From contig JARFYF010000072.1 of assembly GCA_030265395.1 (NCBI GenBank), positions 3,782,179 through 3,846,178 on the forward strand: a stretch of 64,000 nucleotides of DNA, read 5' to 3'. Positions 1,484 through 64,000 of the stretch are shown one piece after another; position 1 is the stretch's first letter, and each line of letters starts with the position of its first letter. Made by a program: the position numbers and the translations under genes. Under the pieces are notes generated by a model, which did no database searches, had not been told where the DNA came from, and worked only from the letters and a program-made list of their open reading frames with translations. Source of the DNA: Rhina ancylostomus (taxonomy: Eukaryota).

Positions 1484-4146
1484 ATGGGATATCCTGCAAT
1501 TTATCACATCGTCAGAATTTATTATCCTGTACTTGCAGCGGTCAGTATTCCTGGTAAGGTACTGGAACAGACTGGTATTAATATTGCTCCGTCAAATGCA
1601 TTATGCTTGCGGGGTTGCAGATTATCCGGATCTTGCTGGTCAGATACTCCGTCCATTGTATTATTGCAAAAAGTGGGTATTGAAAGAAAGCGATGCTGTT
1701 AATTTGTTCGAAAATGTCATTAATATTACTTTAATGGTGTGTTTCTGTTTGGAAATTGAAGTGGTTTCCATGCATTTACATATATTTGTTTTTGATCAAT
1801 CAAAGCATAAAATGCAAATTGATCTTTTATTATTAACACCGCCGAAAACCAGAAATACTGAAGAATGCTTACAAAGGGCACAATCGATCAGATTCAGCAT
1901 CAACGACACCTCCTTTCACATGCAATCAGGACTCGCCGGCGCTGAGACGTGTGTGGTTTGCCAATTGAGCCCTGGTCACTGCTGACCCCGCTCTGGCCTC
2001 TGGCAGTACGAGCACAATTGTGCTCACAATAGTGGGAAAGTTGATTGAAAGAGCGGGGAGAAAGCAAGGAGCCGATTCCTGGCAACAGCCATTCAGCCCA
2101 ATATAGCGCTGGCATTTTCTGTCTCTCACTGTAAATTGAGTTCTTCTTTTGCTGTCATCCCAAACTGAGGGAACTATAATTGCAGCGTCTCCACTGAATT
2201 CTGTATCGTCTAACTGTCAGGCTAAAAGCAATGACCCAAACTCTGCTGTCTGGCAGAAAGCACCAAAGGAACCTTGCCGGACGGAATAATAACACATGGT
2301 CCCTTAATGTCACCACCCTTCCGAATCCCCGTCAATTGTTCACCAGTGTAGTCATTGCGAAGTACCTCTATTTGGAATGTTTATTACGTGCTTAGTTGAC
2401 ATGTGCCATTTGGTATTCCATCGAAAAATATGATCTTTTTTGTGTCATCGCTGCACGTTGACAACACAACAAGGTAAATCAACAATTATTTTATCTGTTT
2501 TAAACACGTGGTTATGTCTGTGAATTATTTATTATGCGCTTCTCCAGACAAGAGTATTTTAGATCTTTAACTAGTGTCTGCGGTCCTTTTCCCACCACTA
2601 ACACTCTCCCTGTCAGCTCGACGCTGAGCGCCTTCGTCCACCGGGTGCGGGAGTATTCCTTGTATTTAATCATTTCGTTCATATGGTGCCTTGTTTCCCA
2701 TTTTTCTCTTTTACTATCGAATTAAATGATTACTGAGTTTATTAACCTTTATGGTTGGATACTGCTCGTAATTTCCAACAGCTTTTCTTTGACTGTGTTC
2801 ATCCCCATCGTTGTTTCACGAATCACGACTGTCCCGGCATTTTCTGCTTTTCACGTCCTGCGCGATGCGCTCTCAGCCGATCTATTCTGCACTGTGGATT
2901 ACCGCGTCCTGGACACATCGCTGGTATCTCCGTTCCTCAAAGCGGAGTGGTCAGAGAATGACGGCTCACTTTAACGGGGATAATATGATTCCCTGTCCCT
3001 GATTATGCCTGAGAGTTGTTTCACATCTTGTGACTTCATAAAGTTTTCCATGCTGTCTCCAAATATCTCTTGGAATAACACGTGATATCATCAAGATATT
3101 TTACAGATGCAGTTGTCAAATATATTAATTTCAAGAAGGGACCCAACTGAGGGCAGTTAATTTAAAGCAGTGCAATAACTTCAAGCAATGGGAAAATAAA
3201 ACAAAATATTCCGCTGCATGTTCCACTCCTCGAAAGACACCAAGCCCATTAAAATCATAGGGATGTCTTCCCCTTTGTATCCGCTCATCTATTCACTGCA
3301 TGACAGAAACACCGTCCGTCTCTCTGTTCTGAGCTCAGCCTCTGGCTGTCCTCCCTGTAGGCTGACTTCAGAGCGTGAAACTAGCGAGAAGTCAGCTGTA
3401 TGTTGCTTGCTGAGTGTAAGTCTGATGGGCCATCCACATCCCATTTCGTAAGCACAGTCGGAATGGTCGCCTGATGCAGCTCCAGGCACTGGCCTGATAC
3501 GAATATTAATTTTACTGTACAAATCAATAGACCAATCTAGATCCGTTCGGAGGTAACAGCAAATTTTATAATATATTTCAGTTAATTTAATGGCGATTGT
3601 AATCCTGTCCCGCGGAAAATGTGGTCTCTTAAAATACATCACTCGCTACCTGGTGGCCATGGCGGCAACAGATCTGATGGTGGTTATCGTCGCTGTGACA
3701 TTGGAGCAAATTAAAATGATCTATCTGTTTGCAACTTTCTTGTTCATAACTCCCCCGTCTGCGGTGAAACTTGTCCGATGAGTTGCAATCGCGGAGTGTT
3801 CCTTTTGGTTGATGGTTGTTTTCACTTTCGATCGTTACGTCGCCATCTGCTGTCAGAAACTGCGGAACCGCTATTGCACGGAGAGAATAGCAACTGTGGT
3901 AACAGTGATGGTGTGTGCAGGGAGCTGACCTGGGGCTATTCCCTTTTACTTTGCAGGAGATCCAAGGCGCTGCGTTGCCACAACCGAACATTTAACGTCG
4001 CCCGTGTGGAGAGTCTACAAGTTATATGACAGTTTCTTAACTCCGGTTTTACCAGTCTGTTTAATTCTACTGTTCAATACTTTAACAATTAGACACATTA
4101 TAGCGGCAAATCGAGTTCGCCGGGGACTTCGGAACAGCAGCGAGAA
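1484..4146 (+). pseudogene. GPR139/142-like GPCR copy 1 (exon 1 1484-1553, exon 2 3582 to gap), pseudogene
   Basis: Exon 1 MGYPAIYHIVRIYYPVLAAVSIP+G|GTAAGG; acceptor tttcag|TTAATTTA; exon 2 VNLMAIVILSRGKCG...FTFDRYVAIC; in-frame TGA at 3779 and 3926; cut by gap 4147-4246. Confidence 0.88.
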
Positions 4147-4374
4147 NNNNNNNNNNNNNNNNNNNNNNNNNNNNNNNNNNNNNNNNNNNNNNNNNNNNNN
4201 NNNNNNNNNNNNNNNNNNNNNNNNNNNNNNNNNNNNNNNNNNNNNNCTGGTCACCTGGCGGCAGCTCCATGTCGTGGCCTGATCCAAATATTAATATTAC
4301 TATACCAATCCATTCACACTGATGAATCTGGCTCAGTTGGGAAGTAACAACATATTTTTTCTGATTTGTTCTAG

Positions 4375-5249
4375 TTAATTTAACGGCGATTGTAATCCTG
4401 TCCCGCGGAAACTGTGGTCTCTCCAAATGCATCACTCGCTATCTTGTGACCATGGCGGCAGCAGATCTGATGGGCGTTATCGTCGTTGTTATCTTGGAGC
4501 AGATTAATTATATCTATTTGTTTGCTAATTCCTTGTTGAGAACTCCAGTGTCTACTATAATACTTGTCCAACGGCTTGCAACCACGGACTGTTCCGTTTG
4601 GTTGACGGTTGTTTTCACATTCGATCGCTACGTCGCCATCTGCTGTCAGAAGCTGCGGGCACGATATTGCACCGACAGAACGGCGATTGTGGTGACCGGG
4701 TCAGTCTGTGTATGGAGCTGTGTTCGGTCTATTCCGCTTTACTTTGCAATGGATCCACGGCACTGCGCTGCCAAAGCTGAATACTTCACATCACCCGTGT
4801 GGAGAGCCTACAGGTTATGTAACGGTATCGTGACTTTGGTATTACCAGTCTGCTTAATTCTTCTATTTAATACTTTAACTGTTGGACACATTATCGCGGC
4901 AAATCGTGTACGCCGGGAACTCCGGAACAGCAGCGGGAACAAGAAGGATCCAGAGGTGGAAAACCGGAGAAAGTCAATGATTTTATTGTTCGTTCTATCG
5001 GCCAATTTCATTTTACTCTGGATGCCCTGTTTTGTACACATTCTGAACTGGCAAGTGGAAAACTATTCCTACACAGACAGGTACCTCAGCACGCCGAGAT
5101 ATATCCTTCAACAGTTTGGGAATATGTTACAGTTTCTCAGTACCTGCACCAACACTTGTCTCTATGGATTGACACAGAGGAAATTTAGGGAGGAGCTGAA
5201 GAATGGTGTGAAATATCTGCTTCCGTTCAATGGCCAACTGGAGAAGTAA
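4375..5249 (+). CDS. GPR139/142-like GPCR copy 2, intact exon 2 (exon 1 not assembled)
   Basis: Acceptor ttctag at 4374; 875 nt open to TAA 5247-5249; TM2 MAAADL, TM3 FTFDRY, TM6 FILLWMP, TM7 TNTCLY, helix 8 KFREEL. Confidence 0.85.
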
Positions 5250-6850
5250 AATGCAAACCTGAATCGTTGAACTTCAAAACAATTGTTCGTACGTCTGTTC
5301 TATTTGAGGGTCAGGGGACTGCTGCTTCCAGATCGTAGTGTTTAATGTTGAGGTTTAATACGGGAAACTGATTCAGCAGATTAGGCAAAAACAATTTTAC
5401 TATTATATTCATAGCCGGATTATTGGTCCTTATATCTTGAGATTAAAGTCAACGGTGATTGATGAAAAATTAGCACAGAATATGAACAGGAACCTGTCGT
5501 ATTTCGCTGAAATAAACATTTTTTTTAACAAATGACTTCTTAATACGGAAGCAACAACAAAACTCGCTTACCAAACAGAAATCTGCGTTTAATCTGAAAA
5601 TAAATGTCACTTTTTAGTGCCTGTTTTCGCAGAATTTGTATTACAAATATATTTCCAACGTATGAAGTGGACAGCGCTGCAATAGTTGTCGAGATCATGG
5701 TTGTTCTCTTGCTCAGAGCAACATGTCCGTGCTAGGTAGATAGGTTCTCGTGGTGAGGAATAATGAAGTATCAATCGGTGCAGTACAACGGTCTGTCAGG
5801 GATGTGACATCATCAGTTTAGGCTCGCCCATTGCACTTCAGAGCAGCTGACGCCTTTGATGTCCTCGGAATGCCGGACACTCGTCTGCATTTTGCTTTGC
5901 TAATGCGGTATTGTGACCATGCTTTGCGCTGATCGTCAGTAAAAGTTAGAATTGTGTTAACGTCTCTTTGAACTTATCACGCCCCTCTTTTTTGTCGCTT
6001 GTAGTAACGTAATCTTCTGAGGCCAAGTCAATTTCTTCGGCGGAGTCAACTGTCATTAAAACGGACTGGTTGCAAACGGGATGAATTTAAACAGAAAGCC
6101 AGCTTATGATCTTCCTGCACTCCCCGTGCTTCTGGGGAATACAGGCACGCTACTTAAAATGGGATTCTCTTCTGTTGTAGAAGAGAGCTATATGTTTTGA
6201 TCGGTTTTGAATGGACGAATCATATATTCCATTTAGTCCATTGATTACAGCTGGTTCCAAAGGGGTGAAATAAGACAGGATGTTCTTCTCATGCAAAAGG
6301 ACAAAAGGAAGTGGCTTGATCTGGGAATAAAAGAGAGATTTTGCAACTGATGGAGAGCAATTTGGAGTAGAAACGTATATAGTTCTGACCATAACAGAGA
6401 AGCGACTGCAATAATTGTTGCGTTTCGTAAAAAACACAAAGGAGGGGAGAGCATCGACGTTTCACAGGTGAGAAGTCTTCCTTCCTTGCATTAGTTGAGC
6501 AGGTTTCAGCTTCAAACTGTTGACAGACAGAGAGGCGTGGGGGTTTATTGAAGGCTCTTCCACCTGCCGTTGCCAGGATGCGACAGCTGTGTTTACTGTG
6601 AGAGTTGCTAATTCTGTATTAAAACAGTTTTCATCAACGGTCGGATTGCCAACGGAACACAATTGTAGTGAACCAGCCTTTGGCAATCGGAGGTTGAACT
6701 TCCATATTCCAAATAAATACAAATAAATATATGTGCAGATAGTATTGTGTTTCTTGTAGATTAATCTTCTTGAATAAACGACATTCTTGGAATTAAATAC
6801 AGTAGGGTTTGCATCCTCAGAAGAGCGCAACATTGTTGCTGGATCATCAG

Positions 6851-6924
6851 TGTCCCTGAGTGGAATCGAACCACCAACCTTTCTGTCAGCAACCGACTGA
6901 GCAGACGGAATACCCCACGGAGAC
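6851..6924 (-). pseudogene. tRNA-Asn-derived pseudogene with perfect B box
   Basis: Reverse complement GTCTCCGTGG...AGAAAGGTTGGTGGTTCGATTCCACTCAGGGACA is 74 nt and collinear with vertebrate tRNA-Asn(GTT); D arm and anticodon (GCT) degenerate. Confidence 0.8.
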
Positions 6925-7708
6925 TTACTGAATTAAGCGGTAATAAATAGGCCATCATTGGGATGGGTGGCGGTGAGCAGTGATCGGTATTGTGGCTCAG
7001 CTTTACAAAATAACTTTGGCCGGAGGGGGAAGGGATATGTGTATATTGACACAGCTATGTTGATGATACAAATCTGGGTGCCCTTGCGTGTTGAGTATAT
7101 TTTTGGTGCACCTTAGTTGTAGTTATATACTTTCTATCCTGAAAGATTGAAGGACGTTGGTGTCCTGAGGAACTCCGATGACCATGTACACAAAATACTG
7201 ACAATCAACACGAAGGGTCAGTAAGTGAGTCGGAGACAAATGGTATTTCGGCCTTTATTGCAAGCGGGTTTGCATTCGGGAATAAACACGTCTCACTGGA
7301 GTTATACAAGGCCCTGGGGAGGTGGCATCTGGAATACACAATCATGTGAATTAGGGGTATTATTCGGCCATTTGGCCTCTTGGAGCTTTCTCGAACATAT
7401 ACTCTATATTAGACTCTACTACCACACGTTCCAGGCACCCACCACTCTCTGTATGAAAGGTCGACCTCTGACATCTCCCCTNNNNNNNNNNNNNNNNNNN
7501 NNNNNNNNNNNNNNNNNNNNNNNNNNNNNNNNNNNNNNNNNNNNNNNNNNNNNNNNNNNNNNNNNNNNNNNNNNNNNNNNNCTGGTCACCTGGCGGCAGC
7601 TCCATGTCGTGGCCTGATCCAAATATTAATATTACTATACCAATCCATTCACACTGATAAATCTGGCTCATTTGGGAATTAACTACATATTTTTCTGATT
7701 TGTTCTAG

Positions 7709-8583
7709 TTAATTTAACGGCGATTGTGATCCTGTCCCGCGGAAACTGTGGTCTCTCCAAATGCATCACTCGCTACCTTGTGACCATGGCGGAAGCAGAT
7801 CTGATGGGCGTTATCGTCGTTGTTATCTTGGAGCATATTAATTATATCCATTTGTTTGCTAATTTCTTGTTGAGAACTCCAGTGTGTACTATGATACTTG
7901 TCCTACGGCTTGCAACCACGGACTGTTCCGTTTGGTTGACGGTTGTTTTCACATTCGATCGCTAGGTCGCCGTCTGCTGTCAGAAGCTGCGGGCATGATA
8001 TTGCACAGACAGAACGGCGATTGTGGTGACCGGGTCAGTCTGTGTCTGGAGCTGTGTTCGGTCTATTCCACTTTACTTTGCAATGAATCCACGGCACTGC
8101 GCTGCCAAAGCTGAATACTTAACATCACCCGTGTGGAGTGCCTACAGGTTATGTAACGGTATCGTGACTTTGGTATTACCAGTCTGCTTAATTCTGTTAT
8201 TTAATACTTTAACTGTTGGACACATTATCGCGGCAAATCGTGTACGCCGAGAACTCCGGAACAGCAGCGAGAACAAGAAGGATCCAGAGGTGGAAAACCG
8301 GAGAAAGTCAATGATTTTATTGTTTGTTCTATCGGCCAATTTCATTTTACTCTGGATGCCCTGTTTTGTACATATTCTGAACTGGCAAGTGGAAGACTAT
8401 TCCTACACAGACAGGTACCTCAGCACGCCGAGATATAACCTACAGCAGTTTGGGAATATGTTACAGTTTCTCAGTACCTGCACCAACACTTGTCTCTATG
8501 GATTGACACAGAGGAAATTTAGGGAGGAGCTGAAGAATGGTGTGAAATATCTGCTTCCGTTCAATGGCCAACTGGAGAAGTAA
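7709..8583 (+). pseudogene. GPR139/142-like GPCR copy 3 exon 2, pseudogene
   Basis: Same 875-nt exon as copy 2, but DRY becomes DR* (TAG 7963-7965) and CGA becomes TGA at 7996. Confidence 0.88.
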
Positions 8584-10184
8584 AATGCAAACCTGAATCG
8601 TTGAACTTCAAAACAATTGTTCGTACGTCTGTTCTATTTGAGGGTCAGGGGACTGCTGCTTCCAGATCGTAGTGTTTAATGTTGAGGTTTAATACGGGAA
8701 ACTGATTCAGCAGATTAGGCAATAGCAATTTTACTATTATATTCATAGCCGGATTATTGGCCCATATATCTTGAGGTTAAAGTCCACGGTGATTGATGAA
8801 AAAATAGCACAGAATTTTAACAGGAACCTGTCGTATTTCTCTGCAATAAACATATTTTAACAAATGACTTCTTAATACGGAAGCAACAGCAAAACTCGCT
8901 TACCAAACAGAAATCCGCGATTAATCTGAAAAAAAAAGTCATTTTTGAGTGCCTGTTTTCGCAGATTTTGTTTTACAAATATATTTCCAACATATGAAGT
9001 GGACCGCGCTGCAATAGTTGTCGAGATCATGGTTGCTCTCGTGCTCAGAGCAACATGTCCGTGCTAGGTAGATAGGTTCCCGTGGTGAGGAACAATGAAG
9101 TATCAATCGGTCCAGTACAACGGTCTGTCAGGTATGTCACATCATCAGTTTAGGCTCGCCCATTGCACTTCAGAGCAGCTGACGCCTTTGATGTCTTCGG
9201 AATGCCGGACACTCGTCTGCATTTTTCTTTGCTAAGGCGGTATTGTGATCATGCTTTGCGCTGATCGTCAGTAAAAGTTAGAATTGTATTAACGTCTCTT
9301 TGAACTTATCGTGCCCCTCTCTTTTGTCGCTTGTAGTAACGTAATCTTCTGAGGCTAAGTCAATTTCTTCGGCGGAGTCAACGGTCATTAAAACGGACTG
9401 GTTGCAAACGGGATGAATTTAAACAGAAAGCCAGTTTGTGATCTTCCTGCACTCCCCGTGCTTCTGGGGAATACAGACACGCTATTTAAAATGGGATTCT
9501 CTTCTGTTGTAGAAGAGAGCTATATGTTTGTATCGGTTTTGAATGGACGAATCATATATTCCATTTAGTCCATTGATTACAGCTGGTTCCAAAGGGGTGA
9601 AATAAGACAGGATGTTCTTCTCATGCAAAAGGACAAAAGGAAGTGGCTTGATCTGGGAATAAAAGAGAGATTTTGCAACTGATGGAGAGCAATTTGGAGT
9701 AGAAACGTATATAGTTCTGACCATAACAGAGAAGCGACTGCAATAATTGTTGCGAGTGTTCCGTAAAAAACACAAAGGAGAGGAGAGCATCGACGTTCCA
9801 CAGGTGAGAAGTCTTCCTTCCTTGCATTAGTTGAGCAGGTTTCAGCTTCAAACTGTTGACAGGCAGAGAGGCGTGGGGGTTTATTGAAGGCTCTTCCACC
9901 TGCCGTTGCCAGGATGCGACAGCTGTGTTTACTGTAACAGTTGCTAATTCTGTATTAAAACAGTTTTCATCAACGGTCGGATTGCAACAGAACACAATTG
10001 TAGTGAACCAGCCTTTGGCAATCGGAGGTTGAGTTTCCATATTCTAAATAAATACAAATAAATATATGTGCAGATAGTATTGTGTTTCTTGTAGATTAAT
10101 CTTCTTGAATAAAGACGTTCTTGGAATTAAATACAGTAGGGGTTCCATCCTCAGGAGAGAGCAACATGGTTGCTGGATCATCAG

Positions 10185-10258
10185 TGTCCCTGAGTGGAAT
10201 CGAACCACCCACCTTTCTGTCAGCAACCGAATGAGCAGACGGAATACCCCACGGACAC
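10185..10258 (-). pseudogene. tRNA-Asn-derived pseudogene
   Basis: Paralog of 6851-6924; B box GGTTCGATTCC at 10196-10206. Confidence 0.8.
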
Positions 10259-11477
10259 TTCCTAAATTAAGCGGTAATAAATGGGCCATCATTGGGATGG
10301 GTGGCGGTGAGCAGTGATCGGTACTGTGACTCAGCTTTACACAATAACTTTGGCCGGAGGGGGAGGGGATATGTGTATATTGACACAGCTATGTTGATGA
10401 TACAAATCTGGATGCCCTTGCGTGTTGAGTATAGTTTTGGTGCACCTTAGTTATAGTTATATACTTTCTATGCTGAAAGATTGAAGGATGTTGGTGTCCT
10501 GAGGAACTCCGATGACCATGTACACAAAATGCTGACAATCAACGCGAAGGGTCAGTAAGTGAGTCGGGAGACACATGGTATTTCGGCCTTTATTGCAAGC
10601 GGGTTTGCATTCGGGAATAAATACGTCTCACTGGAGTTATACAAGGCCCTGGGGAGGTGGCACCTTGAATACACGATCATGTGAATTAGGGGTATTATTC
10701 GGCCATTTGGCCTCTTCGAGCTTTCTCGAACATTCAGTAATATCATGGCTATTATGATTTTATTCTCAACTCCACATCCCCGCCTCATCAATGACCTTTC
10801 ACACCTTGCTGATTAACCATTTGATCATCACTGCCTGAAACTATTTGCAGACTCTGCTTTTTGCTCTACTTAGATACACCACCTTTTGAGGAAAGGAGTT
10901 TCAAAGACACACGGCCTATGTTTACATCCCGAGCCCTCTACATTCTCCAGTGGATACAATTAGTGTGTTCATGGACGGACGGGAACAATAATTTTCCAGA
11001 CAGAGGAAAATAACTGATCCTGAACTGAAAACAGAAACTGCAGGAAACACTCAGCAGGTTAGGCAACATCTGTGGAGGAGAAACAGAGTTAACGTTTCAC
11101 ACTGAACGCCGCGCGGGTCGTTGGATGTAGGGAGTCTCAATCAGAGAGTGACAGGGTTTCCTCACCCCGCCACTATACTCCCAAACCTCATACAGTGTTA
11201 CCCAGAGCTATGGACAATCAGTTCGATGAGTGCAACGGCGCTGCACGTTCCAGACCGGTCCATGCATTGTCAGAGTGAATGTTGCCACATTTATCATTCA
11301 TACAGTAGTGGAGCAAATGATCATAGAACATAGAACCGTGCAACGGAGTCCGGGCCCTTTGGCCCACGATGTTGTGCNNNNNNNNNNNNNNNNNNNNNNN
11401 NNNNNNNNNNNNNNNNNNNNNNNNNNNNNNNNNNNNNNNNNNNNNNNNNNNNNNNNNNNNNNNNNNNNNNNNNNNNN

Positions 11478-12069: not shown

Positions 12070-12642
12070 TATTAAGTCTATTTATTATAGCTGGTGCCAA
12101 ATTGGTGAAATTTGTCAGAAAGTGCATGCCATGCAAAGGGAAGTTTATTGATCTGTGTATAAAACGGAGATTTTGCAACTAATGGAGAATAATTTGGAGT
12201 AGAATTGTAGATGGTTCTGAGGACCATCACAGAGAAGCGACGTGTTGCGCGTGTTTCATTCGTTAAGCAGGTTTTCACTTCAAACTCTTGTCATGGCCGA
12301 GAAGCATAGGGGTTTTTTGAAGGCCCTTGCATCTGCCATTGCCAGGAGCAACTAAAAGGATGCGACGTCTGGGTTTACTGTAACTGTGTAAACTGTTGCT
12401 AATTCTGTATTAAAACAATTTTCATCAACAGGCTGATTGCATCAGAACAAAATTGGAGTGAACAATCCTTTGGAAATAGGAGGCTGATCTTTCATTGTTC
12501 AAAATAAATGCGAATAAAGAAATGTACGGATAGTATTGTTTGTCCTGCAGATTTTGCTTCGTGACCACACCATATTTTTGGAATGAAATACAGCAGAGCA
12601 TTCCAGCCTCAGAAGAGCGCAACATTGCTGCTGGATTATCAG

Positions 12643-12716
12643 TGTCTCTGAGCAGACTCGAACCATCAACCTTTCTGCTTGTAGCCGAATGAGCTGACCG
12701 AATACGCTACGGAGGC
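12643..12716 (-). pseudogene. tRNA-Asn-derived pseudogene in an orphan GPCR 3'-flank module
   Basis: Reverse complement GCCTCCGTAGCGTATTCGGTCAGC...AGAAAGGTTGATGGTTCGAGTCTGCTCAGAGACA, 74 nt; flanks homologous to the 6851 and 10185 copies. Confidence 0.75.
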
Positions 12717-13774
12717 TCCCTGAATGAAGAGGCAAATATGGGCCATTGTTGGGCAGGGTGGCGCTGAGCAGGGATCGGTGCTGTTTCAGATTCACATAAT
12801 TATTCTGACTGCTGGGGGCGGGAAAATATGTATAATATACACAGCTATGTTGATCATACTAATCTGGATGCCATTGTGTGGTGTGGAGTATATTTTGGGT
12901 GCGCTTCAGATGTAGTTATATCCTTTCAATGCAAAGTGATTTAAGGGTGTTGGTATTCTGAGGAAACCCGGCGTCCATGCGCAGAAAATACCGGCAATGT
13001 ACACGAAGGGTCAGTGAGTTGGTCGGAAGGCAAACGGTATGTCGGCATTTATTGCAAGCTAGTTTGCATTCAGGAATAAACACGTCTTACTGGAGTTACA
13101 CAGGGCTCTAGAGAGGTGGCACGCGGAATATAAGAACATACGAATCAGGGATATCAGTTGGCTATTTGGCCCCTTAGAGCTTTCTGTAACATTCAGTAAT
13201 ATCATGGCTGAATTTATCCTCAACTCGACATCCCCGCCTCACCGGTGACCTTTTACACCTTGCTGATTAACCATTTCATCATCACTGCCTTAAACTATTC
13301 AGACACTCTGCTTCCGCCGCCCTTTGAGGAAGAGAATTCGAAAGACACACGCCCGACGTGTACCGCCCGACTCCCTATATTCTCCAGCAGATACAAACAG
13401 CGTGTCCCGTGGCAGACGGGAACAATAACGAAACCCAGTAAGAAGAAAATAATTGATATTGAACTGAAAACAGAAACTTCTGGAAACACTCAGCTGGTCA
13501 GGCAGCTCTGCGGAGGAGAAACAGAGTTCATGTTTCAGGTCGATGACCTGCCACACTGATCGCCGGGCAGGTAGTTGGACAGAGGGATTATAAATCAGAG
13601 AGTGACAAGGTTTCCTCACCCAGCCGCTATAATCACAGATCTCATTCAGTGCTACCCAGAACTATAGGCAATCACGCCGATGACTGCAAATGGCGTTACA
13701 CATTCCAGACCGGTGTATACACTATCAGGGAGAATGTTGCAACATTTATCATTCGTACAGTAGTGGATCAAATG

Positions 13775-15401: not shown

Positions 15402-15471
15402 ATGGGACATCCAATAATATGGTGGATCGAAATCAGTTATTTTTCTGTCATTTCAGTGGTTGGAATACAGG
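15402..15471 (+). pseudogene. GPCR copy 4 (subfamily B) exon 1 with dead splice donor
   Basis: MGHPIIWWIEISYFSVISVVGIQ+G followed by ATATGT, where the paralog at 18561 has GTAAGC; exon 2 not seen (gap 15841-15940). Confidence 0.7.
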
Positions 15472-16703: not shown

Positions 16704-16976
16704 ACAATGAAACCACGTTTTCACAACGCACCAGAAACCGACAGCAAGTGAATGAACGCCACACTATCACACGGTGCCAGAGACTGACAGGTACAGAATG
16801 AACCCCACACTCTCACACGGTATGAGTGAATGACAGGTCCGGAATGAACCCCGCACTCTAACACTGTACGAGAGACCGGCATGTAGGGAATGAACCACAC
16901 AGTCTCACAGTGAACAAGAAACAGGCAAGTACAGACGAGACCACATTTCCACACTGCACCAAGGCCTGGCATGGAT
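16704..16976 (+). repeat. 46-bp minisatellite, about 6 degenerate units (about 3 units in the paralogous block at ~14905-15040)
   Basis: Unit gaatgaaccccacactctcacacggtNcNagagactgacaggtaca repeated head to tail. Confidence 0.8.
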
Positions 16977-18490: not shown

Positions 18491-20704
18491 CAGGGATATA
18501 CATTTATCTGGAGGATAGAAAGCATTTATTTTCATGCCATTTCAGCGGTTGGAATTCCCGGTAAGCCTCTGTCTCAGCTGTCGTAATCAGAGTTGGTGTT
18601 TAATTCCAATGCTCTGAAATATTTACCTCGCTACGTCTTTGCACAGTCACCTGTACAGTCCGAGCATTTCAAAAATGGAATTTCCGTGTTCTATGGTCTT
18701 GGTCTTTGAACGGCTCTCCTGTATTTGCAACGAATCTGTTCGGGTATTAACATACTAGATCGTTGTTTGTAAATAATCAGGGAGAGCGTGTCCAGGACAG
18801 GAACAGGAACCGGAGCACTGGTCGCTGTTAACATATAAACAGCTCAAAAATGTTCATTCGTAGGCTGGAATTTTTGTCACATTTATGCATTCCGTCATTG
18901 TACATTGAAAATGAGATAGTTGATGGAGGAGTCAGTGAAACCCTTCAGGTATATTCAAGTAGCGTGAGTGAACAATGATTGCAGCCTATTTTCAATCCAT
19001 ACTCAATTTCTCAAATACGTTTAATGGCTATCATTGTTGTAAAACATGTCTCTGCAATTCTTGCATCAGGCACCGCTCCAAATCTCAACTGAGATGCTGG
19101 CTCTTGAAATACTCTGCTCGGCCTTGATCCTACAGGTTTAGTGTGGATCGGAATGTCTGAGAGTATCTCAGCCTGCACTGCATATATTGGGATCAGCCGT
19201 TCACTGTCAGTCTGTCACAGACAGGCAGCGGCGGGAAGTTGGNNNNNNNNNNNNNNNNNNNNNNNNNNNNNNNNNNNNNNNNNNNNNNNNNNNNNNNNNN
19301 NNNNNNNNNNNNNNNNNNNNNNNNNNNNNNNNNNNNNNNNNNTCTCAGCCTGCACTGCATATATTGGGATCAGCCGTTCACTGTCAGTCTGTCACAGACA
19401 GGCAGCGGCGGGAAGTTGGTGTTCCGTCAATGGAACAATGTCTCCACTGAGCAACCGGATATAGTCATTTTACTCACCGCGATATGTGAACGGCACAGGG
19501 AAGGATGATCCATCCCGCATTACCCACTCCGAGTGCGTTACCCATCTAGAGCTCCGCTCCATTGAACCTTCCAGTCTTTAGTGTGGAACCTTACCCAAAC
19601 TTTATCCACATCATTTAGCTCCGTCAATCCCTCTTCTGTCCGGATAGACTCTGCGTTCTCTTGCGGCCCTTTGCATGGTCCAGGAAACACTTCAATCCCC
19701 TCGATACAGCAAGAAAGCGGCAATGTCATCTGAACACCTCAAACCACTGGCTCCGCGCCTGAATTGTATTTTCCCTCCTTGCTTTTCTCTCCGTTCCAGT
19801 TAACCTAATGGCGAATGCGATCTTGTCACGAGGAAAGTGTGGTCTCTCCAAATATATAATTCTTTACCTGGTGGCAATTGCAGCGGCCGATCTCCTGGTC
19901 GTTATCTCGTAACCCCTGCTCAGGTGGACTGTTCTGATGTATTTTCCGCTATCATTCGTCCGCATCACTCCCGTGTGCAGTCTCGGTCTTTGGCTAGTTT
20001 TAGCAAGCAATGCGGTTTCTGTCCACCTTCCGGTCGCTTTCGTCTTTCAGCAATCTGTGGTCATTTGTCGTGAGTAGGTGAAAACAAAATACTGTACCGT
20101 GAGAACAGCGGCTGTGGTCGTCGGGACAGTAAGTGTTCTGAGCTTTTCAGAGAGTTTCCCCCGGTACTTTGTATACGAGCCTAGAGAAATAATTGATGTT
20201 GTTCCCTGGGACTGTTCCAGTAAACCCAGCTGCCGTGCATCCCTGCATGGGTGGCACATCAGCTGTTTCACCACAATTTAACCCCTTTTTCCCCGTTCTT
20301 TCTGATTCTGCTGCTCGATGTTCTGACGGTCAGACGGACTTTAGCGGCCAGTAGAGTCCGCAGTGGGTTCCAGGGCCACAGCAATAGGGAGAATAACAGT
20401 CACCCGGAGATGAAGAAACGAAGCAAATCAATCCATTTACTCTTCAATATAACCGGTGGTTTCATATTGCTCTGGGTAAAAATGGTGGTGTTTTCTGTCG
20501 ATCAACGAATTTCAAAGAGCTATAATTTTCAGCCACCCATCCCCGTTATATCACACTACACACAGCAAGATTGAGCAGCTTCTCTGTTCCAGTACCAACA
20601 CGTGTATTTACGCCGCGACTCAGAGAAAATTCTGAGCACAGCTGAAGAACGCGATGAAATACCCGCTGAATCGGATTATTCATTCCGTTCAATGTAAACA
20701 CTAA
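18491..20704 (+). pseudogene. GPCR copy 5 (subfamily B): exon 1 18491-18560, exon 2 19800-~20704, pseudogene
   Basis: Start codon replaced by CAG; GYTFIWRIESIYFHAISAVGIP+G|GTAAGC; acceptor ttccag|TTAACCTAATG; LSRGKCGLSK, AAADLL, KYCTVRTAA, YEPREIIDVVPWDC, TNTCIY; several stops and frameshifts, DRY lost. Confidence 0.85.
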
Positions 20705-35345: not shown

Positions 35346-35346
35346 T

Positions 35347-41497: not shown

Positions 41498-41570
41498 GTC
41501 CCTGTGGTGCAGTCGGTCATCGGATTCGGCTGATGAGCGAAAGGCTGGTGTTTCAGCCGACTCAGGGACA
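41498..41570 (+). pseudogene. Degenerate tRNA-Asn pseudogene 3' of GPCR copy 7
   Basis: GTCCCTGTGGTGCAGTCGGTCATCGGATTCGGCTGATGAGCGAAAGGCTGG...CTCAGGGACA with conserved flanks (tgtgaaaagccgggtcccag; ctgacgatccggca). Confidence 0.7.
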
Positions 41571-43810: not shown

Positions 43811-44670
43811 CAGATTTTCCCATTTCAGGTAAACATATCTATCACTGCATTCACCAGTTCCTCCCTAAATGTCCTTTGTGTCAGTCCACAGAGACACGTG
43901 CAGGTACTGAGAAACTGTAACATATACCCAAACTGTCGAGGATATATCTCGGTGTGCTCTATTATCTGACCAAGTAGGAATGGTTCTCAGATTGCCAGTT
44001 CATGGTGTGTATAAAATAGGGTATCCACAGTAAAATGAAATTGGCTGATCGAACGAACAACAAAATCATTGACTTTCTCCGGCTGTCCACCTCTGGATCC
44101 TTCTGATTCTCGCTGCTGTTCTGGAGTCCCCGTCGAACTCGATTTGCAGCTATAATATGTCTGACAGTTAAAGTATTAAACAGCAGGATGAAACAGATTG
44201 GTACTCCCGGAGTCACGAAAACATCACATAACTGCTCAACTCTCCAAACGGGTGACGTTATGTGTTCAGCTGAGGAGCCGCAGCGCCAGGGATCCACTGT
44301 AAAGTAAACTGGAATAGCCCGAGTACAACACCCCGCACACACTGCAACTATCACTACATCGCTATCATCTCGGTGCAATACCGTTTCCGCAACTTCTGAC
44401 AGCAGATGGCGACGTAGCGGTCGAAAGTGAAATCAACCGTCAACCAAACGGAACTGTCCGAGATTGCAACCCGAAGGACAATCATCACTTCACACACAGG
44501 AGTTATGAACAAGAATTTAGCAAACAGATGGGTATAATTAATCTGCCCCAATATAACTGCGACAACAATGTCCATCAGATCTGCTTCCGCCATGGCCAGT
44601 AGGTTGTGAGTGATGCATTTGGAGAGACCACATTTTCTGCGGGACAGGATCACAATCGCCGTTAAATTAA
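43811..44670 (-). pseudogene. GPCR copy 7 exon 2, pseudogene (exon 1 beyond gap or absent)
   Basis: Acceptor cgcag at 44671; ILSRRKCGLSK...FTFDRYVAIC; frameshift near 44370, stops in ECL3 and C-terminus; close paralog of copy 8. Confidence 0.88.
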
Positions 44671-46609: not shown

Positions 46610-49135
46610 TCACCGAATCAGGATTGTATGTTTCCAACCGATTTTCCCATTTAAGGTAAAAATATATTTCACTGCATTGATCAGTTCCTCCCGAAATTTC
46701 CTTTGTGTGAGTCCATAGAGACACGTGTTGGTGCAGGTACAGAGAAACTCTAACATATACCCAAACTGTTGCAGGATATATCTCGGTGTGCTGTAATATC
46801 TGTCTGAGTAGGAATAGTTCTCGGATGGCCAGTTCATAGTGTGTATAAAATAGGGTATCCACAGTAAAATGAAATTGGCTGACAGAACGAACAACAAAAT
46901 CATTGACTTTCTCCGGCTGTCCACCTCTGGATCCTTCTGATTCTCGCTGCTGTTCCGGAGTCCCTGGCGAACTCGATTTGCAGCTATAATATGTCTGACA
47001 GTTAAGGTATTAAACAGCAGGATTAAACACATTGGTACTCCCGGACTCACGATAACATCACATAACTGGTAGGCTCTCCAAAAGGGTGACGTAAAGTATT
47101 CAGCCGTGGAGACGCAGCGCCATGGATCCACCGCAAAGTAAAATGGAATAGCCCGGGCACAGCAACCTGTACACACAGTTCCTATCACCACAGTCGCTGT
47201 TCTCTCGGTGCAATATCGTTTCCGCAACTTCTGACAGCAGATGGCGATGTAGCGATCGAAAGTGAAAACAACCGTGAACCAAACGGAACAGTCCGAAATT
47301 GCAACCCGAAGGACAATCATCACCGCGCACACCGGAGTTATGAACAAGAATTTAGCAAACAGATAGATATAATTAATCTGCTCCAGTATAACAGCAATGA
47401 CAACGCAAATCAGATCTGCTGCCGCCATGGCCACCAGGTAGCGAGTGATGCATTTGGAAAGACCACATTTTCCGCGGGACAGGATCACAATCGCCGTTAA
47501 GTTGACTGCATGAAATGATAAAACATGATGTTATGTTTCAACTGATCCATATTTGTCAATATGGGTTGATTTGAGCGGGAAAAAGAACGATATTCCGCAT
47601 CGGGCCACAGCCCAGAGCCGTCACAACTGAACCAGCGCGCCTGCCGTGACCGCGATGGGGAGCGGATGGCCGATCAGGCTCACACTGACCAAACGACGTA
47701 CAACTGAGATCTCGCCGGTTTGACGCTCTGAAGTAAATCAACAGGATGGAAAGCTGGAGGCTGAGCTGTGTTTTAATGTATCTTTGATTCTGTCATGTAG
47801 TTGAAAGATGGCCCGATACACTTGCACCTGGACCCAAAAGGGAGAGAATCGAGCGCAGTACCGATTGTTTAAATGGATTTTAAAGAAATTAAAAACCATG
47901 CCCAACCATCAAGGTTTACAAAATGATTAATCTCTTGGTTTGATGGAAAGTGTTGAAAATAATAAAAGAAGAATCGAATAAAATAACTTATACTCCCCCA
48001 TCCCGACAGCGGAAAGAGCTGAATGTCACTCTGAAAGGTGGTGAAGAAACGGTTGCAGAACGGCGAGGAGGACAACATTGCTCTTGAATGGAAAGCACAG
48101 ATAACTAACAGACAAAACTGTTCTTCAAATTTAAAAAAGTAAATCAATAAAGACACAAGTAAACAGGTCATATTTGTTCATGGGACAACAAATGGCATTT
48201 GCCAAGGTAACCGACATGAAAAATTATTTTAAGGAACTTCGCAATGACGGTGACATTGGAAGGTAATTGACAGGAATTCGAAAGGCTGGTGAAATGCCAC
48301 TACCAATGATAGTTTACCCCGACGGACAAAGTAACTCAGGTGCATTGTCTCAGACAACAGGGTTTGGTCAATGTTTTTTGACCTTACAGTTGACCGACAC
48401 CGACTTGCGGAAAGACGGTAACATCATTGTTCCCTCTGTTTGGGATGACAGAAGAGGAAGAACTCCATTGACACTGAGAGACAGGAAAAGCTGGAGACAG
48501 TTTTGGGCTGAGTGGCGCGCTGCATGGAATCGTGTCCGTGCTTTTTATTCACTCCTTCTGTCAACCTTCACCCTATGGTGAGCACAATTGTGCTGAGACT
48601 GCCCGAGGCCAGAGCGGACGCAGCAGTGACCATACGTCGACTGACAAACCATAGACGTCTCAGTGCCAGAGAGTCCGCACTACGTTTGTAAGGAGGTAAC
48701 ATGGGTGCGAAATCTTGTGGACTGTGAGCTTGGTAATCACACTTAACATCTCTGGTAGTCGGCGGTGTTCAAAAGAAAATTAAATTTCTATCACCTGATT
48801 AGGTTGATCATATATAAATATATTTAAATATATTGAAAACTTTTCTCAAATTGACATGCGGAATTACACCATTAAAGCAACACAAAATACATTTTTGAAG
48901 GAAATAATCAGATCGTATTCTTTTCAATTCCTACTTCTGAAATAATGCAATTTGAAATAATGTAATAATACAATGTACTCAACAACTGGAAATTGACGGC
49001 TCATCCATGATGCCGCAAGCGGAATGATGGAGCCACAAAAATAGCAGACGGATTCGATACCTTACCAGGAAAACCGATCGCGGCAAGTACAGGATAGTAG
49101 ATTCTGACAATGTTGTAAAGAGCTGGATATCCCAT
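46610..49135 (-). CDS. GPR139/142-like GPCR copy 8, complete and intact, 321 aa (exon 1 49135-49066, exon 2 47505-46610)
   Basis: MGYPALYNIVRIYYPVLAAIGFP+G|GTAAGG ... tgcag|TCAACTTA; 966 nt in frame; 7 TM segments with AMAAADL, FTFDRY, LLWIP, TNTCLY; TATAAA 74 nt upstream. Confidence 0.92.
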
Positions 49136-51720: not shown

Positions 51721-52113
51721 TGTGGCCAAGAGCAGCATTAGGGATTTGAAAACCAGTTGATTGAACACGTTGCCTGGACCAGACAATATGTAGGTTATCC
51801 AGTCCACTAGGACAGAGAACCGATGTTGCCGCTCACCTACCCGACAATGTGTCGGTGATCCAGTGCACAGAGAAAGAGAGCTGATGCTGTCGCTCCCTAG
51901 CTCAACAGTATGTCGGTAACCCGGTGCAGTGGGACATAAAACTGCTCCTGTTGCTCCCCGACCCATCAACGGCGAGCTTTTAGTGTTCCCATATGCTCCA
52001 GATCCATAAAGTAGCAATGGTGCTTTTGCATTATACAGTCTGACTTCATTCAAAGCTCTTGTCGGACTCTGGGTGTATTTAGCCTCTCTGTTCAATATTC
52101 ACTATCACCAGCG

Positions 52114-55506: not shown

Positions 55507-58350
55507 ATGGGATACCCAGCAATATTTCACATCGTCAGAATTTACTATACTATCCTTGCAGCTGTCGGCAATCCTGGTAAGACACTGGAATTGAATGGTG
55601 ATTATTTGTGGCTCTGTCTAATGTATTACGCTGGCGGCGTTGTCGATTACCCGTATCTTCCTGTCCAGATGCTCAGTCTACTGTATTATTTTAGAAAGTG
55701 GAAATTGAAAAGAAAACGATATTGTTATTTAGTTTTAAAATGTAATTTATGTTACTTTAATTGTTTATTTCTGCATGGAAATTTCGGTGAAGATTTCTAT
55801 TCATTTACGTATATTTATATATGACCAATCTGAGCACATAATGCAAATTGATCATTTAATATTAACACCGACGAATACCATAAACATTTAAGAATGATTA
55901 CAAAGCTCACAGTCGATCAGATTCCGCACCAACGTTACCTCCTTTCACAAGCAATCATGACCCTCCGGCGGTGAGAAGTGTGTGGTTTGTCAATTGAGAC
56001 CTGGTCACTGCTGAGACCGCTGTGGCCTCGGGCAGTCCCAGCACAATTGCTCTCACAATACCGTGAAGGTTGACTGAAGGAGCGGGAAGAAAGCAGTGAG
56101 AGGATTCCCAACGCGCTGTTGAATCATCCAAAAGCGATCGTCAAGTTTCCTGCCTCTCACTCTAAATGGATTTCTTCCTCTGTTGGCATCCCAAACTGAG
56201 GGAACTATAATTGCTCATCAATGTCGTCATTGTGAAATACCTCCATTCTGAATATTTCTTGTGTGCGAACTGTGCAAGAGCCATTTGGTGTTCCATCAGC
56301 AAATCTGACTTGATTTTGTGGCCTCACTGTTAGTTGGAAAGCATAACCAAGGAAATCAAAAATGATTTTATTTTCTTTAAAAACTATTACTAATGGCTAA
56401 CAATTATTTGTATGTGTTTCTCCAAAGAAGAATTGTTTTGTCCTCTAAACAGTGCCTGCAGTACTTTCCCCAGCACTAACACTGTCCTTTTCAGCGCGAC
56501 GCTCAGCTTCCTCCCCCAGGGGTATACTTCATTTCAAATTTCTTTAATCACCTCATTCATTTGGCGCCTCGTTTCTCATTTTTCACTTTTACCATTTAAT
56601 TAAAGGATTACTGAGTATATCGACCTTTATGGTTTGGGTATTGCTTATAATTGTCAACATATTTTCTGTGACCGTGTTCATAACCATAATTGTCTCACGA
56701 ATCACGCCTGTCCCGACAACTTCTGGTTTTCACGCCCTGCGCGATGCGCATTCACCCGATTGATCTCTTCTGCCCTGCGGCTTCCAGCGTCCAGGACACT
56801 ACAATGATATCACCGTTTCTAAAGGCGGAGCGGTCAGAGAGTGACGGCTCATATTGAAGGGGATAATGTGGCTCCCTGTCCCCGAATATGCCAGCGAGGC
56901 GTATGACATCTTCTGACATCATGGGGCTTTCCATGTCATCTCCAAATATCTCTCCGAATCAAAGGCAATTGCTTCAAGATATTTCACAGGTGCAATTATT
57001 GAACTCATTCATTTCGAAACGGACCTAACTGAGGTCAGTTAATTGAAAGCAGTACAAAAGCGTGGAGTGATGTGAAATTCAAACAGATCAGTCCACTGCA
57101 TGTGCCGTTCCCCGGAAGTCGCCAACCACATTAAAACAATAGAGACTGCGCTGGATTCCCTCCACTTTGTATCCGGCCATTCGTTCACTGCCTGGCAGAA
57201 CCAGCAGAAGACGCTCTGTTCTGATTTAACTTGAAGCTCAGCCTTCGACTTTCTTTCAGGGTGCGAATCGAACGAGAACTCAGCTGCAAGTCGCTCGTCG
57301 AGGGTCAGTCTAATCGATTGGACGTATACCATTTCGTCAGCAGAGGCGGCCTGATCACCTTGCTGCGGCTTCATTCAGTGGCTGCATCCGAATATTAATT
57401 TTACAGTACCAATCAACTCACACTGACCAATGTGGGTCGTTGGGAAGTAACAGCATATTTTATGATTCCTTTGAGTTAATTTAATAGCGTTTGTGATCCT
57501 GTCCCATGGAAAATGTGGTCTCTCCAAATGTATCACTCGCTACCTGGTAGCCATGACAACAGCAGATCTGATAGGCATTGTTCTTGCTGTTTTATTGGAG
57601 CAGATTAATTTCATCTATCTGTTTGCCAATTTCTTTTTCAGAATTACGATGTGCACTGTGATACATGTCCTACGGGTTGCAAAGTCGGACTGTTCCGTCT
57701 GGTTGACTGTTGCTTTCACTTTCGATCGTTACGTCGCCATCTGCTGTGAGAAGCTGCGAAAACGATATTGCACGGAGAGAAGAGCGATTCTGGTAACAGT
57801 GACAGTGAGTGGAGGGAGCTGTGCCTTGGCTATTCAAATTTACTTTGCGGTCGATCCACGGCGCTGCTCCGCCAAAGCTGATTATATTGCGTTACGCCTG
57901 TGGAGAACCTTCAGGTTATGTGACAATATCGTAACTCTGGCATTACCAATCTGTTTAATTCTAATGTTTAATACTTTAACTATGAGGCACATTACAGCAG
58001 CAAGTCGAGTCCGCCTGGGACTCCGGAACATCAGCAACAACCAGAAGGATGCAGAGGTGGAGAACCGAAGAAAGTCAATGATTTTATTGTTCGTTCCATC
58101 AGCTAATTTCGTTATACTTTGGATCCCCCATTTTGTGTACACTATGAACTGGCAAGTGGAAAACTATAGTTACACAGACAGATATTTCAACACTCCGAGA
58201 TATGTCTTGCAACAGTTTGGGTATATGTTACAGTTTCTCAGTACCTGCACCAACACGTGTATCTATGGAATGACACAGAGGAAATTTAGGAAGGAGCTGA
58301 AGAATGGAATGAAACATCTGTTTCCATTAAATGGACAACTGTGTAAATAA
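55507..58350 (+). CDS. GPR139/142-like GPCR copy 9, complete ORF, 314 aa (exon 1 55507-55576, exon 2 57476-58350)
   Basis: MGYPAIFHIVRIYYTILAAVGNP+G|GTAAGA ... ttgag|TTAATTTA; 945 nt with no stop; FTFDRY, TNTCIY; weak GAG acceptor. Confidence 0.82.
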
Positions 58351-61831: not shown

Positions 61832-61931
61832 NNNNNNNNNNNNNNNNNNNNNNNNNNNNNNNNNNNNNNNNNNNNNNNNNNNNNNNNNNNNNNNNNNNNN
61901 NNNNNNNNNNNNNNNNNNNNNNNNNNNNNNN

Positions 61932-62485
61932 AGACAGGTGCATACAACCAGCCCCCTTTCCTGAAGTCTTTGCCCAGCTCTTTTGGTTTGGTCACATTGA
62001 AGGAAAGGTTGTTGTAATGACAACATTCCACTAATCTCTATATCTCCTTCCTGTAATCCGACTCATCGCTGTTTGAGATACGATTTACAACGGTGGTATC
62101 ATCTGCAACCTTGTAGATGGAGTTAGAGCAGAATCTGGCCACACAGTCATGAGTGTTAAGGAAGTAGAGTAGAGGGCTGAAGACGCAGTCTTACAGGGCA
62201 CCAGTGTTGAGAATAATCATGCCGGAGGTATCATCACTGATTGCGGTATATTTGTTAAAAGTCAAGGATCCAGTTACAGAGGGAGGTCTTGAGTCCTGGG
62301 TCTCGGGAGTTTGGTAACGCTTGCTTGGGATTATTGCATTGAAGTCAGAGCTGTAGTCAATAAACAATAGTCGAACGTATGTGTCTTTATTGTCCAGATG
62401 CTCCAGAGCTGAGTGTATGCCAGGGAGATGACATCAGCCGTGGACCTGCTTCGGCGATAGGTGAATTGTAGTCATTGCGAAGTAA
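61932..62485 (-). mobile_element. Rex1/Babar-like LINE RT fragment
   Basis: Reverse complement encodes ILNTGA...VFSPLLY...HDCVA...NSIYKVADDTTVV. Confidence 0.8.
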
Positions 62486-63686
62486 CTCTATTCTGAATGT
62501 TTCTTCTGTGTTAACTTGGCAAGTGCCAATTGGTGTTCTTTCAGTAAATATGACCCGTTTTGTGCCGTCGCTGATAGTTGACAAGCATAAATAGGAAAAT
62601 CAAGAATTATTTTAATTTTATTTAAAATCAAGTGGTCTTGTCTCTCAATTATTTCCGTATGTTTCTCTAAACAAGGGTAGTTTGGACCTCTCAACAGTGT
62701 CTGCAGTCCTTTTTCCCACCAGCGAGCGTGAGTATGTTTTGTGTCTCATTTCTTTAATCATTTCCTTCATTTGGTGCCTAGTTTCTTGTTTTCCACTTTT
62801 CCCATCTAATTAAACGATTACTGAGTATATCAAACTTTACGGCTGGGTATTGCTTGTAAATTCCAACAGATTTTCTATGATTGTGTTCAAATCCATAATT
62901 GTTTCACCGATCAATCCAGTACCGGCAAATTCTGTTTTCTTCGTCCTGCACGATGACCGCTCACACGATTTATCTCTTCTACCCTGCGGCGTCCCGTGTC
63001 CTGGAAACGTCGCTGGTACCTCGTTTCTCCAAGGCGGAGCGGTGAGAGAATAACGGCTCACTTTGACGGGGATGATGTGAATCCTTGATCCCAAATATGC
63101 CAGAGAGCTGTTTGACATGTTGTGACTTTACTGCACGTCGTCTCGAAATGTCTCTCCTAACCAAATGTAATTCCTTCGAAATGTTTTGCCGGTGTGATTA
63201 TTAAAAACATGTTCATTTCAAAACGTACTCAACTGAGGTCAGTTAATTTAAAGCAGTATAATATCGTCAAGTTATGTGAAATTAAAACAAAACATTCAGC
63301 TACATGTGCCGTTCCTCGGAAGTCGCCAACCCATTCGAACCATCGTGACTGCACTGGATGCCCTCCTCTTTGTGTCCGGCCACGTGTCCACTTCATGGTA
63401 GAACCGCCCGAAGGCGCTCTGTTCTTATTTAAGGTGAGGTTCAGTATCCAGAAATCCTTCCTGTCGATTGACTTCAGAGAGTGAAACTGGCGAGAACTCA
63501 GCTGTGCGTCGCTAGCAGAGTGCCAGACTGGTTGAACATCCAATCCCATTTCGTCAGTACAGGCGACCAAGTCACCTGGCGTCAGCTCCAGTCAGTGGCA
63601 CAATCCAAATTTACTGTATCAATCAATCCAGACTAATCAATCCGGGTCCACTGGGAAGTAACAGCATATTTTATCAGTTCTTTCAG

Positions 63687-64000
63687 TTAATTTAACGACG
63701 ATTGTGATCCTGTCCCGCGGAAAATGTGGTCTCTACAAATGCATCACTCGCTACATGGTGGTCAAGGAGGCAGCAGGTCTGATGGGCGTTGTCAGTGCTT
63801 TTATATTGGAGCAGATTAATTTAATCTATCTGTTTGCTAGTTTCTTGTTGAGAACTCTGGTGTGCACTGTGATACATGTCCTGCGGGCCGGAACCATGGA
63901 CTGTTCCGTTTGGTTGACGGTTGCATTCACGTTCGATCGATACGTCGCCATCTGCTGTCAGAAGCTGCGGAAACGATATTGCACCGAGAGAACAGCGACT
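63687..64000 (+). CDS. GPCR copy 10 exon 2, 5' part (runs off the window; exon 1 not seen)
   Basis: tttcag|TTAATTTA; open frame NLTTIVILSRGKCG...FTFDRYVAICCQKLRKRYCTERTA; TM2 Asp replaced (AAGL); intron homology 62486-63686. Confidence 0.7.

Follow-up and report, generated by a model that had tools for sequence, protein, structure and literature searches.

Of the vertebrate G-protein-coupled receptors (GPCRs) of class A, GPR142 is a tryptophan and phenylalanine (Trp/Phe) sensor of gut and pancreas (PMC7318219). GPR139 orthologs are 70–96% identical, and conservation of mammalian GPR139 is at least 70% even in zebrafish (PMC7318219). Relatives in the wider clade bind aromatic amino acids and Wamide or RFamide peptides (PMC8557429), and three GPR139/142-related orphan subtypes, GPR210A, GPR210B and an unnamed set, have been listed in coelacanth, gar and fishes (PMC6504862). 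Among invertebrates, the srw chemoreceptors of nematodes branched off from rhodopsin GPCRs of the peptide type (PMC3963977). Cartilaginous fishes are portrayed as having few GPCRs and few olfactory receptors (PMC8455134, PMC10116579, PMC11979771), and a whale shark paper speaks of a relative paucity of GPCRs in the group. Here we analysed a 64-kb stretch of the Rhina ancylostomus genome (contig JARFYF010000072.1; hereafter, the window), in which two-exon class A GPCR genes lie densely clustered on both strands. Judged by sequence comparison, the window holds one of the clusters of a multigene family of predicted orphan class A GPCRs that is elasmobranch-wide, and we think it rather probable that this family serves, in the broad sense, as a repertoire of sensors for many ligands.

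The window contains nine exon-2 copies (A to I) and one exon-1-only relic, making ten loci, located with tblastn and with a family hidden Markov model (HMM) built on 56 relatives and run over the six frames. The preliminary description of this DNA had recognized the dense cluster with genes on both strands, but its count of at least ten two-exon copies plus a relic was too high; a tenth exon-2 copy, looked for by tblastn, HMM and blastn across the window, was not found. Because the exon-2 copies scored 143–512 bits against the family HMM, these matches are not due to chance, and all three exon-2 frames tested matched the Pfam 7tm_1 model (E 2e-21 to 4e-18). Exon 1 is 70 nt long in A, G and H and 69–70 nt in the disabled copies D and E. 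It ends in G/GTAAG (the slash marks the junction), exon 2 opens with AG/TT or AG/TC, and the intron lies in phase 1 after a YYxxLAAxGxP motif, so that the phase-1 intron after LAAxGxP described earlier is borne out, as is the lack of an N-terminal sequon (the first NxS/T stands at residue 25 or 208 in G and H). Both exons were seen in only five of the nine copies (A, D, E, G and H). The assembly of the window is fragmented by 13 gaps of 100 N each; exon 1 of B, C, F and I was searched for in the window and not found, its expected place lying in or beyond such gaps. By-eye inspection for olfactory-type promoter motifs gave nothing convincing apart from a TATA-like element.

A homolog search with G as query returned 2,654 candidates, with 1,967 clusters at 90% identity at E ≤ 1e-10, of which 120 were listed. 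Among the matches listed, 114 of 120 came from 17 shark and ray species, the closest being a sawfish protein (79% identity), with at least 20 entries on 8 contigs in Mobula hypostoma and at least 18 on 11 contigs in Narcine bancroftii. At 50% identity, 107 representatives scored E ≤ 1e-30. No chimaera protein appeared among the 120 listed of 1,967 G matches, nor among the 42 listed matches to the amphibian/sturgeon orphan discussed below. The exon-1 motif, sought as a sign of spliced transcripts, was absent from all six remaining short-contig matches among those listed, which thus give no hint of expression. The window copies fall in a ray-only clade in our trees, and subfamilies in a 70-row quick tree hold both sharks and rays, so the expansion began before the shark–ray split. 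Tandem clusters, many pseudogenes, lineage-specific together with shared subfamilies and purifying selection on live copies make up a birth-and-death pattern; the lineage-specific tandem expansion proposed in the preliminary description is thus upheld by the homolog search and the trees.

In the literature searched we found no description of an elasmobranch GPR139-like expansion; subscription literature was mostly outside reach, so prior mention is possible. GPR139 entries were absent from the supplementary files consulted for PMC8455134 (12 of 24 files), PMC11589584 (4 of 5), PMC12361510 (11 of 12) and PMC13188829 (5 of 8), and the available portions of a GPR139 review (PMC12208981) and of a vertebrate GPCR survey (PMC6504862) contain no mention of sharks. 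The genes themselves are already known in the sense that they are publicly annotated, under the misleading name GPR139. What is new is a birth-and-death GPCR repertoire from a parent without known vertebrate precedent for one.

The automatic GPR139 name, carried by 113 of the 114 species-assigned matches listed, is a best-hit label: identity of the window proteins to human GPR139 is 22–23%, catshark has a true, reciprocal-best GPR139 with 81.3% identity to mouse (PMC13200729, supplement rows), and the residues of the Trp/Phe pocket are not kept. Of the six pocket residues (E3x32, F3x33, H5x43, W6x48, R6x51 and N7x38; PMC7318219, PMC12775434), even lenient matching found 1, 1 and 2 in the window copies and no more than one in 98 of 111 close relatives; copy G reads R/V/D/W/Y/Y at E3.32, F3.33, H5.42, W6.48, R6.51 and N7.39. 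GPR139 orthology is ruled out by the low identity, the pocket loss and the true catshark GPR139, and amino-acid sensing is therefore not transferable from that receptor. The earlier idea of aromatic amino-acid sensing by descent from GPR139/142 is accordingly not supported, the nearest outside relative being a different orphan. What survives of the likeness lies at a deeper level. With a profile of 50 family sequences, human GPR139 outscored all other receptors of solved structure (98 bits, against 77 for the runner-up), which supports membership of the family in the wider GPR139/142-related clade, although descent from GPR139 or GPR142 themselves is not supported. G alone as query gave GPR139 no margin (37.2 versus 36.7 bits). 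A fold search, which ranked the neurotensin receptor first and GPR139 28th, was discarded as uninformative on kinship. GPR139 and GPR142 also have two exons (PMC7318219) and similar motifs in transmembrane helices (TM) 1 and 2; they are single-copy, whereas the elasmobranch family is multi-copy.

Closest to the family outside elasmobranchs is an orphan with one entry per species in 20 amphibians and one sturgeon (the P0222 group), also auto-named GPR139. It formed a clade with the elasmobranch family in a 37-row careful tree (support 100/99). Forcing the family instead to join a second orphan (the P0243 group, known from coelacanth, sharks, sturgeon, teleosts, amphibians and reptiles, mostly one per species) was rejected (approximately unbiased test, p-AU 0.009, the groups having been named after the tree was seen). 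As far as protein sequences can tell, these trees show that the family descends from, or is sister to, a P0222-type orphan of the GPR139/142-related clade, and that it is not GPR139. The amphibian/sturgeon orphan, sister or co-ortholog of the family, is 28–33% identical to G and may be one of the three subtypes of PMC6504862. It differs from the family in its single copy per species and its strongly conserved, GPR139-like pocket, with four of the six GPR139-type residues in 20 of 21 sequences. The P0243 orphan (28–30% identity to G) shares the wider clade but lies outside the family clade, has a conserved pocket with Arg6.51 in 100% of sequences and is a separate gene in sharks. Both orphans have a short N-terminus. 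As a sensory sign this feature was rejected and carries no weight, being shared by outside genes of amphibians, coelacanth, catshark and sturgeon (6 of 7, the seventh being a truncated model).

Further relatives were seen in passing. No mammal or bird occurred among the 120 matches listed for the P0243 orphan, and two entries of this group are named TMEM183A isoforms, which suggests that the gene adjoins TMEM183A. P0417 (Lampetra), P0253 and P0255 form a third vertebrate lineage of the clade (100/99, lamprey protein included). Amphioxus has a small GPR139-like expansion of its own; these genes belong to the same or a neighbouring deep clade, yet branch outside the family.

Evidence for a repertoire comes from how the ligand pocket and the signalling face have evolved. 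Rates were estimated for 45 of the 111 close relatives (chosen at random), 45 broad members of the family, 45 of 120 P0243-group sequences and the 21 of the P0222 group, at 29 positions that we take to be the class A pocket, numbered from motif anchors. The relative rate at these positions was 1.35 in close relatives and 1.73 in the broad family, and 0.69 and 0.33 in the P0243 and P0222 groups; it was higher in the family than in the outside genes at 22–28 of the 29 positions in four comparisons. The pocket evolves more slowly than other outer positions in the outside genes (p 0.0003 and <0.0001) and faster in the broad family (1.73 versus 1.21, p 0.019). Inner (intracellular) TM positions in the family have relative rates of 0.61–0.71, and entropy is 0.43–0.62 bits at 25 G-protein-facing positions versus 1.51–2.58 at the pocket: the intracellular half has been conserved over a tree 21 changes per site long, and the pocket has not. 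Given these rates, the entropy and the pocket retention in the P0222 group, the pocket was freed from its ancestral constraint as the family expanded and the signalling half was retained, although relaxed constraint alone could give part of the pocket pattern. The earlier case for a sensory or surveillance repertoire had leaned on tandem expansion, a high pseudogene fraction, compact genes and variable extracellular loops; the combination of a released pocket and a conserved intracellular half is stronger evidence for it.

Purifying selection acts on copies B, G and H. Their pairwise ratios of non-synonymous to synonymous substitution rates (dN/dS) are 0.40–0.53, and a codon model gave omega 0.505, with omega = 1 worse by 10.4 log units (2dL, twice that difference, 20.8, 1 df); this went against passive duplication, which the preliminary description had tied to a dN/dS near 1. 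Pairs with A or I gave 0.39–0.95, and the H branch has a calculated omega of ~0.62. Among the window copies, dN was 0.247 for codons of the pocket, 0.212 for the remaining outer TM codons and 0.112 for inner ones. The omega of 1.9 at pocket codons, drawn from three copies and few synonymous sites, was not trusted and does not establish positive selection.

The condition of the copies was judged by their departures from 95 columns in which at least 90% of 111 relatives agree; overlong or duplicated models, 9 among the 120 matches, had been dropped. G and B depart at 4 and 3 of these columns (family median 3), and H at 10, above the maximum of all 111 relatives (8). I shows 7 departures over 105 residues; one of them is Gly in place of Asp2.50, and TM2 of this copy also has Lys and Glu. 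B has Ser for Cys3.25, which is Cys in 100% of the family, so its disulfide between TM3 and extracellular loop 2 (ECL2) is lost. The departures of H suggest relaxed constraint, and I is probably decaying. Five copies are disabled, A and C by two stops each and D, E and F by frameshifts and stops. The earlier tally of two intact, two open but partial and six disabled copies therefore becomes five disabled copies, with G cleanly intact, H open yet atypical, and B and I open yet short of a conserved residue each. G has a confident predicted seven-helix receptor fold (pLDDT, predicted local distance difference test score, 90), and both G and H have the class A hallmarks (7tm_1, D2.50, DRY, the TM3–ECL2 disulfide and helix 8), B being without Cys3.25 and I without Asp2.50. 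NPxxY reads NTCxY in the whole family. ECL2 of G, H and B lacks 8 residues that are present in 88 of 111 relatives; the deletion is common to the other 23, every species-assigned one of which is a ray, and may open the pocket. The B and C blocks are 96% identical over 3.15 kb (4247-7398 versus 7582-10733) and begin at the same first base after a gap. This may reflect recent duplication or a pair of haplotypes in the assembly; the even spread of the 4% divergence would favour the former over alleles, although an assembly artefact is possible.

Taken together, the results show an elasmobranch family, descended from or sister to a P0222-type orphan of the GPR139/142-related clade, whose expansion predates the shark–ray split and whose turnover by tandem duplication and pseudogenization continues. 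Its intracellular half has stayed constant, and its ligand pocket, conserved in single-copy-like relatives, has become free to vary and has diversified. Each intact copy may then be a G-protein-coupled sensor with its own ligand preference, all copies feeding one common G-protein pathway, and the repertoire might read a chemically varied class such as small peptides, amino-acid derivatives and similar polar molecules. The ligands are probably peptides or amino-acid-like, to judge from the aromatic amino acids and Wamide/RFamide peptides that receptors of the wider clade bind (PMC8557429). We think that sensing at a body surface or barrier (skin, gill, mouth, gut, sensory neurons or leukocytes) is likelier than use as hormone receptors.

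Known repertoires offer several parallels. OR, TAAR, V1R, V2R, T2R and MRGPR/FPR families likewise form birth-and-death clusters with many pseudogenes, a variable pocket and a constant signalling face; the difference from OR, TAAR, V1R, V2R and T2R is that the window copies match only 7tm_1 at E ≤ 0.01 (3 of 3 tested). Nematode srw receptors, in the same or a neighbouring deep clade, set a precedent, as a chemoreceptor family that arose from a receptor of peptide type, but their expansion was independent and the window proteins have no Srw model match at E ≤ 0.01. The protostome MIP, proctolin, FMRFamide and myosuppressin receptors, also of the same or a neighbouring deep clade, have expanded independently.

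Several points weigh against a multi-ligand sensor repertoire. Expression, ligand or signalling records for the elasmobranch family were sought in the literature and not found, and just one of the ten loci in the window (G) is cleanly intact. Among the close relatives, pocket positions do not outpace the other outer ones (1.35 versus 1.49, p 0.72), and the broad set, where they do, consists mostly of 50%-identity representatives and is thus enriched for diversity. The pocket list follows general class A knowledge, and was revised from 28 positions, as used for the entropy, to 29 after a TM5 register check. Behind the pocket omega of 1.9 stand 87 codon pairs whose dS is low (0.13); with the gene-wide dS of ~0.36 it falls to ~0.7. 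Monophyly of the family to the exclusion of the amphibian gene is weak, the placement of P0184 in the tree is unsettled, and true GPR139 and GPR142 are not in the trees (no ortholog of either was among the 424 proteins from which these were drawn, 386 of them checked by motif).

Most of the duplication could also have been passive, in repeat-rich DNA, with a few copies doing the ancestral job and the rest drifting to pseudogenes. We regard this as quite unlikely. Five of nine copies are disabled and three more carry damaging changes, retroelement debris and tRNA-derived repeats lie within the cluster, and the H branch omega of ~0.62 would fit such drift. Yet omega = 1 was rejected, deep subfamilies are retained in sharks and rays alike, and the long tree conserved the intracellular half and not the pocket. 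Sensors of internal metabolites or peptides, in gut endocrine cells or osmolyte control and comparable to GPR142 in pancreas and gut, would suit the Trp/Phe-sensing of that receptor (PMC7318219) and the ancestral use of the clade for internal signalling (PMC8557429). This is very unlikely in our judgement: endogenous ligands usually keep a pocket constant, as in the two outside genes, whereas the family pocket varies, and hundreds of paralogs would be hard to account for.

The remaining alternatives are narrower forms of the sensor repertoire and differ in the organ it would serve. A fifth olfactory or taste receptor family, sparse in olfactory or taste cells and reading waterborne cues, seems unlikely to us. 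It would agree with the compact clustered genes and variable pocket, with sharks having just 4–9 genes each of OR, TAAR and V1R (and catshark 34 V2Rs), and with a high pseudogene share being termed a hallmark of olfactory families (PMC10116579). However, almost all olfactory neurons of the catshark are microvillous Go/TRPC2 cells, fitting V2R expression (PMC10116579), and no GPCR stands among the top 50 brain-and-olfactory genes (PMC11979771), a weak point because V2Rs are missing there too. Catshark OR genes are, moreover, expressed mostly outside the nose (PMC11979771), so the genomic pattern does not fix the organ. We put forward only tentatively that these genes form a fifth, overlooked shark and ray chemosensory family derived from a peptide-receptor-type orphan that remained single in amphibians and sturgeon, and possibly exceeding the V2R repertoire. 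A repertoire for barrier or immune surveillance, akin to the MRGPRs or formyl peptide receptors and at work in somatosensory neurons, skin, gill or leukocytes, is to us a similarly speculative possibility; the mammalian MRGPRs provide the analogy, and fast turnover with a diversified pocket would suit it. Cartilaginous fishes are without MAS1 and its relatives, which would leave the role vacant (PMC8455134), and the parent clade binds peptides (PMC8557429). Speaking against it, no immune-type gene was found in the window, 0 of 11 long non-GPCR frames having reached the Pfam cut-off.

Apart from the receptors, the search for other protein genes among these long frames gave one weak RVT_1 match, below the cut-off, from a fragment of the retroelement-like debris (Table 1); the debris without such a match we take, from its appearance, to be of long interspersed nuclear element (LINE) type. 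Repeats of ~175 nt, 68–77% alike, end in decayed tRNA-like sequence and have moved along with the receptor duplications; they are probably tRNA pseudogenes or a tRNA-derived element. A segment that copies the upstream region of H and A has no exon behind it and is a possible promoter relic of another lost copy. One of the 13 gaps, at 19243, is an unmerged overlap, because its flanking 77 bases are identical (19166-19242 and 19343-19419).

Table 1. Receptor copies and other features of the 64-kb window.
Feature	Position	Strand	Exon 2 start	Details
Copy A, pseudogene	1484-4146	+	3582	Exon 1 1484-1553; in-frame stops ~3779, ~3926; N gap cuts end
Copy B, exon 2	4375-5249	+	4375	Open to stop; exon 1 outside assembly (gap 4147-4246); Cys3.25 codon TCT (Ser) at 4551
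Copy C, exon 2, pseudogene	7709-8583	+	7709	Stops at 7965, 7998; within 3.15-kb block resembling B block
Exon-1-only relic, divergent D-type subfamily	15402-15471	+		Donor GA, not GT; N gap follows
Copy D, pseudogene, more divergent subfamily	18491-20671	+	19800	Exon 1 18491-18560 without ATG; exon 2 with stops and two frameshifts
Copy E, pseudogene	23141-26968	+	26125	Exon 1 23141-23209 frameshifted; exon 2 with five frameshifts and stops
Reverse-transcriptase fragment	24912-25331			In copy E intron
Copy F, exon 2, pseudogene	43789-44670	-	44670	Two frameshifts and stops; 84% identity to G block; exon 1 outside assembly (gap 45102)
Copy G, intact 321-aa seven-helix receptor (predicted)	46610-49135	-	47505	Exon 1 49135-49066; exon 2 47505-46610; upstream TATA-like element at 74 nt
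Copy H, open 314-aa receptor	55507-58350	+	57476	Exon 1 55507-55576; exon 2 57476-58350; TATA-like element 75 nt upstream
Copy I	62467-64000	+	63687	From 62467, intron with homology to the H intron; exon 2 open to window end
Retroelement-like debris	76-462, 24912-25331, 34626-35141, 61932-62467			
tRNA-like gene	37873-37947	+		ARAGORN Asn; Rfam tRNA 54.8 bits
tRNA-like gene	38652-38723	+		ARAGORN Val; Rfam tRNA 46.4 bits
Duplicate of tRNA-like gene block	39752-40963			83% identity
Repeats of ~175 nt	6837-7011, 10171-10345, 12629-12800, 37786-37960, 39757-39940, 41411-41584			One copy called tRNA-Ser by ARAGORN (10184-10258)
Copy of H and A upstream region	27571-28075			74-76% identity
Minisatellite	16731-16909			Period 46 bases
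Minisatellite	51778-51928			Period 61 bases

A large family under the name 'probable GPR139' would alter the GPCR count of cartilaginous fishes and contradict their stated paucity, and its varied pockets point to a repertoire that serves many ligands. This raises the question of which receptors besides V2Rs read chemicals in sharks and rays, and where; the conserved amphibian/sturgeon gene offers an ancestral-state control for ligand comparison. If the family is chemosensory, it would explain keen chemical senses despite a handful of OR, TAAR and V1R genes, and would parallel the nematode srw chemoreceptors. Should the organ be skin, gut or leukocytes rather than the nose, the family would still be an undescribed vertebrate sensor family.

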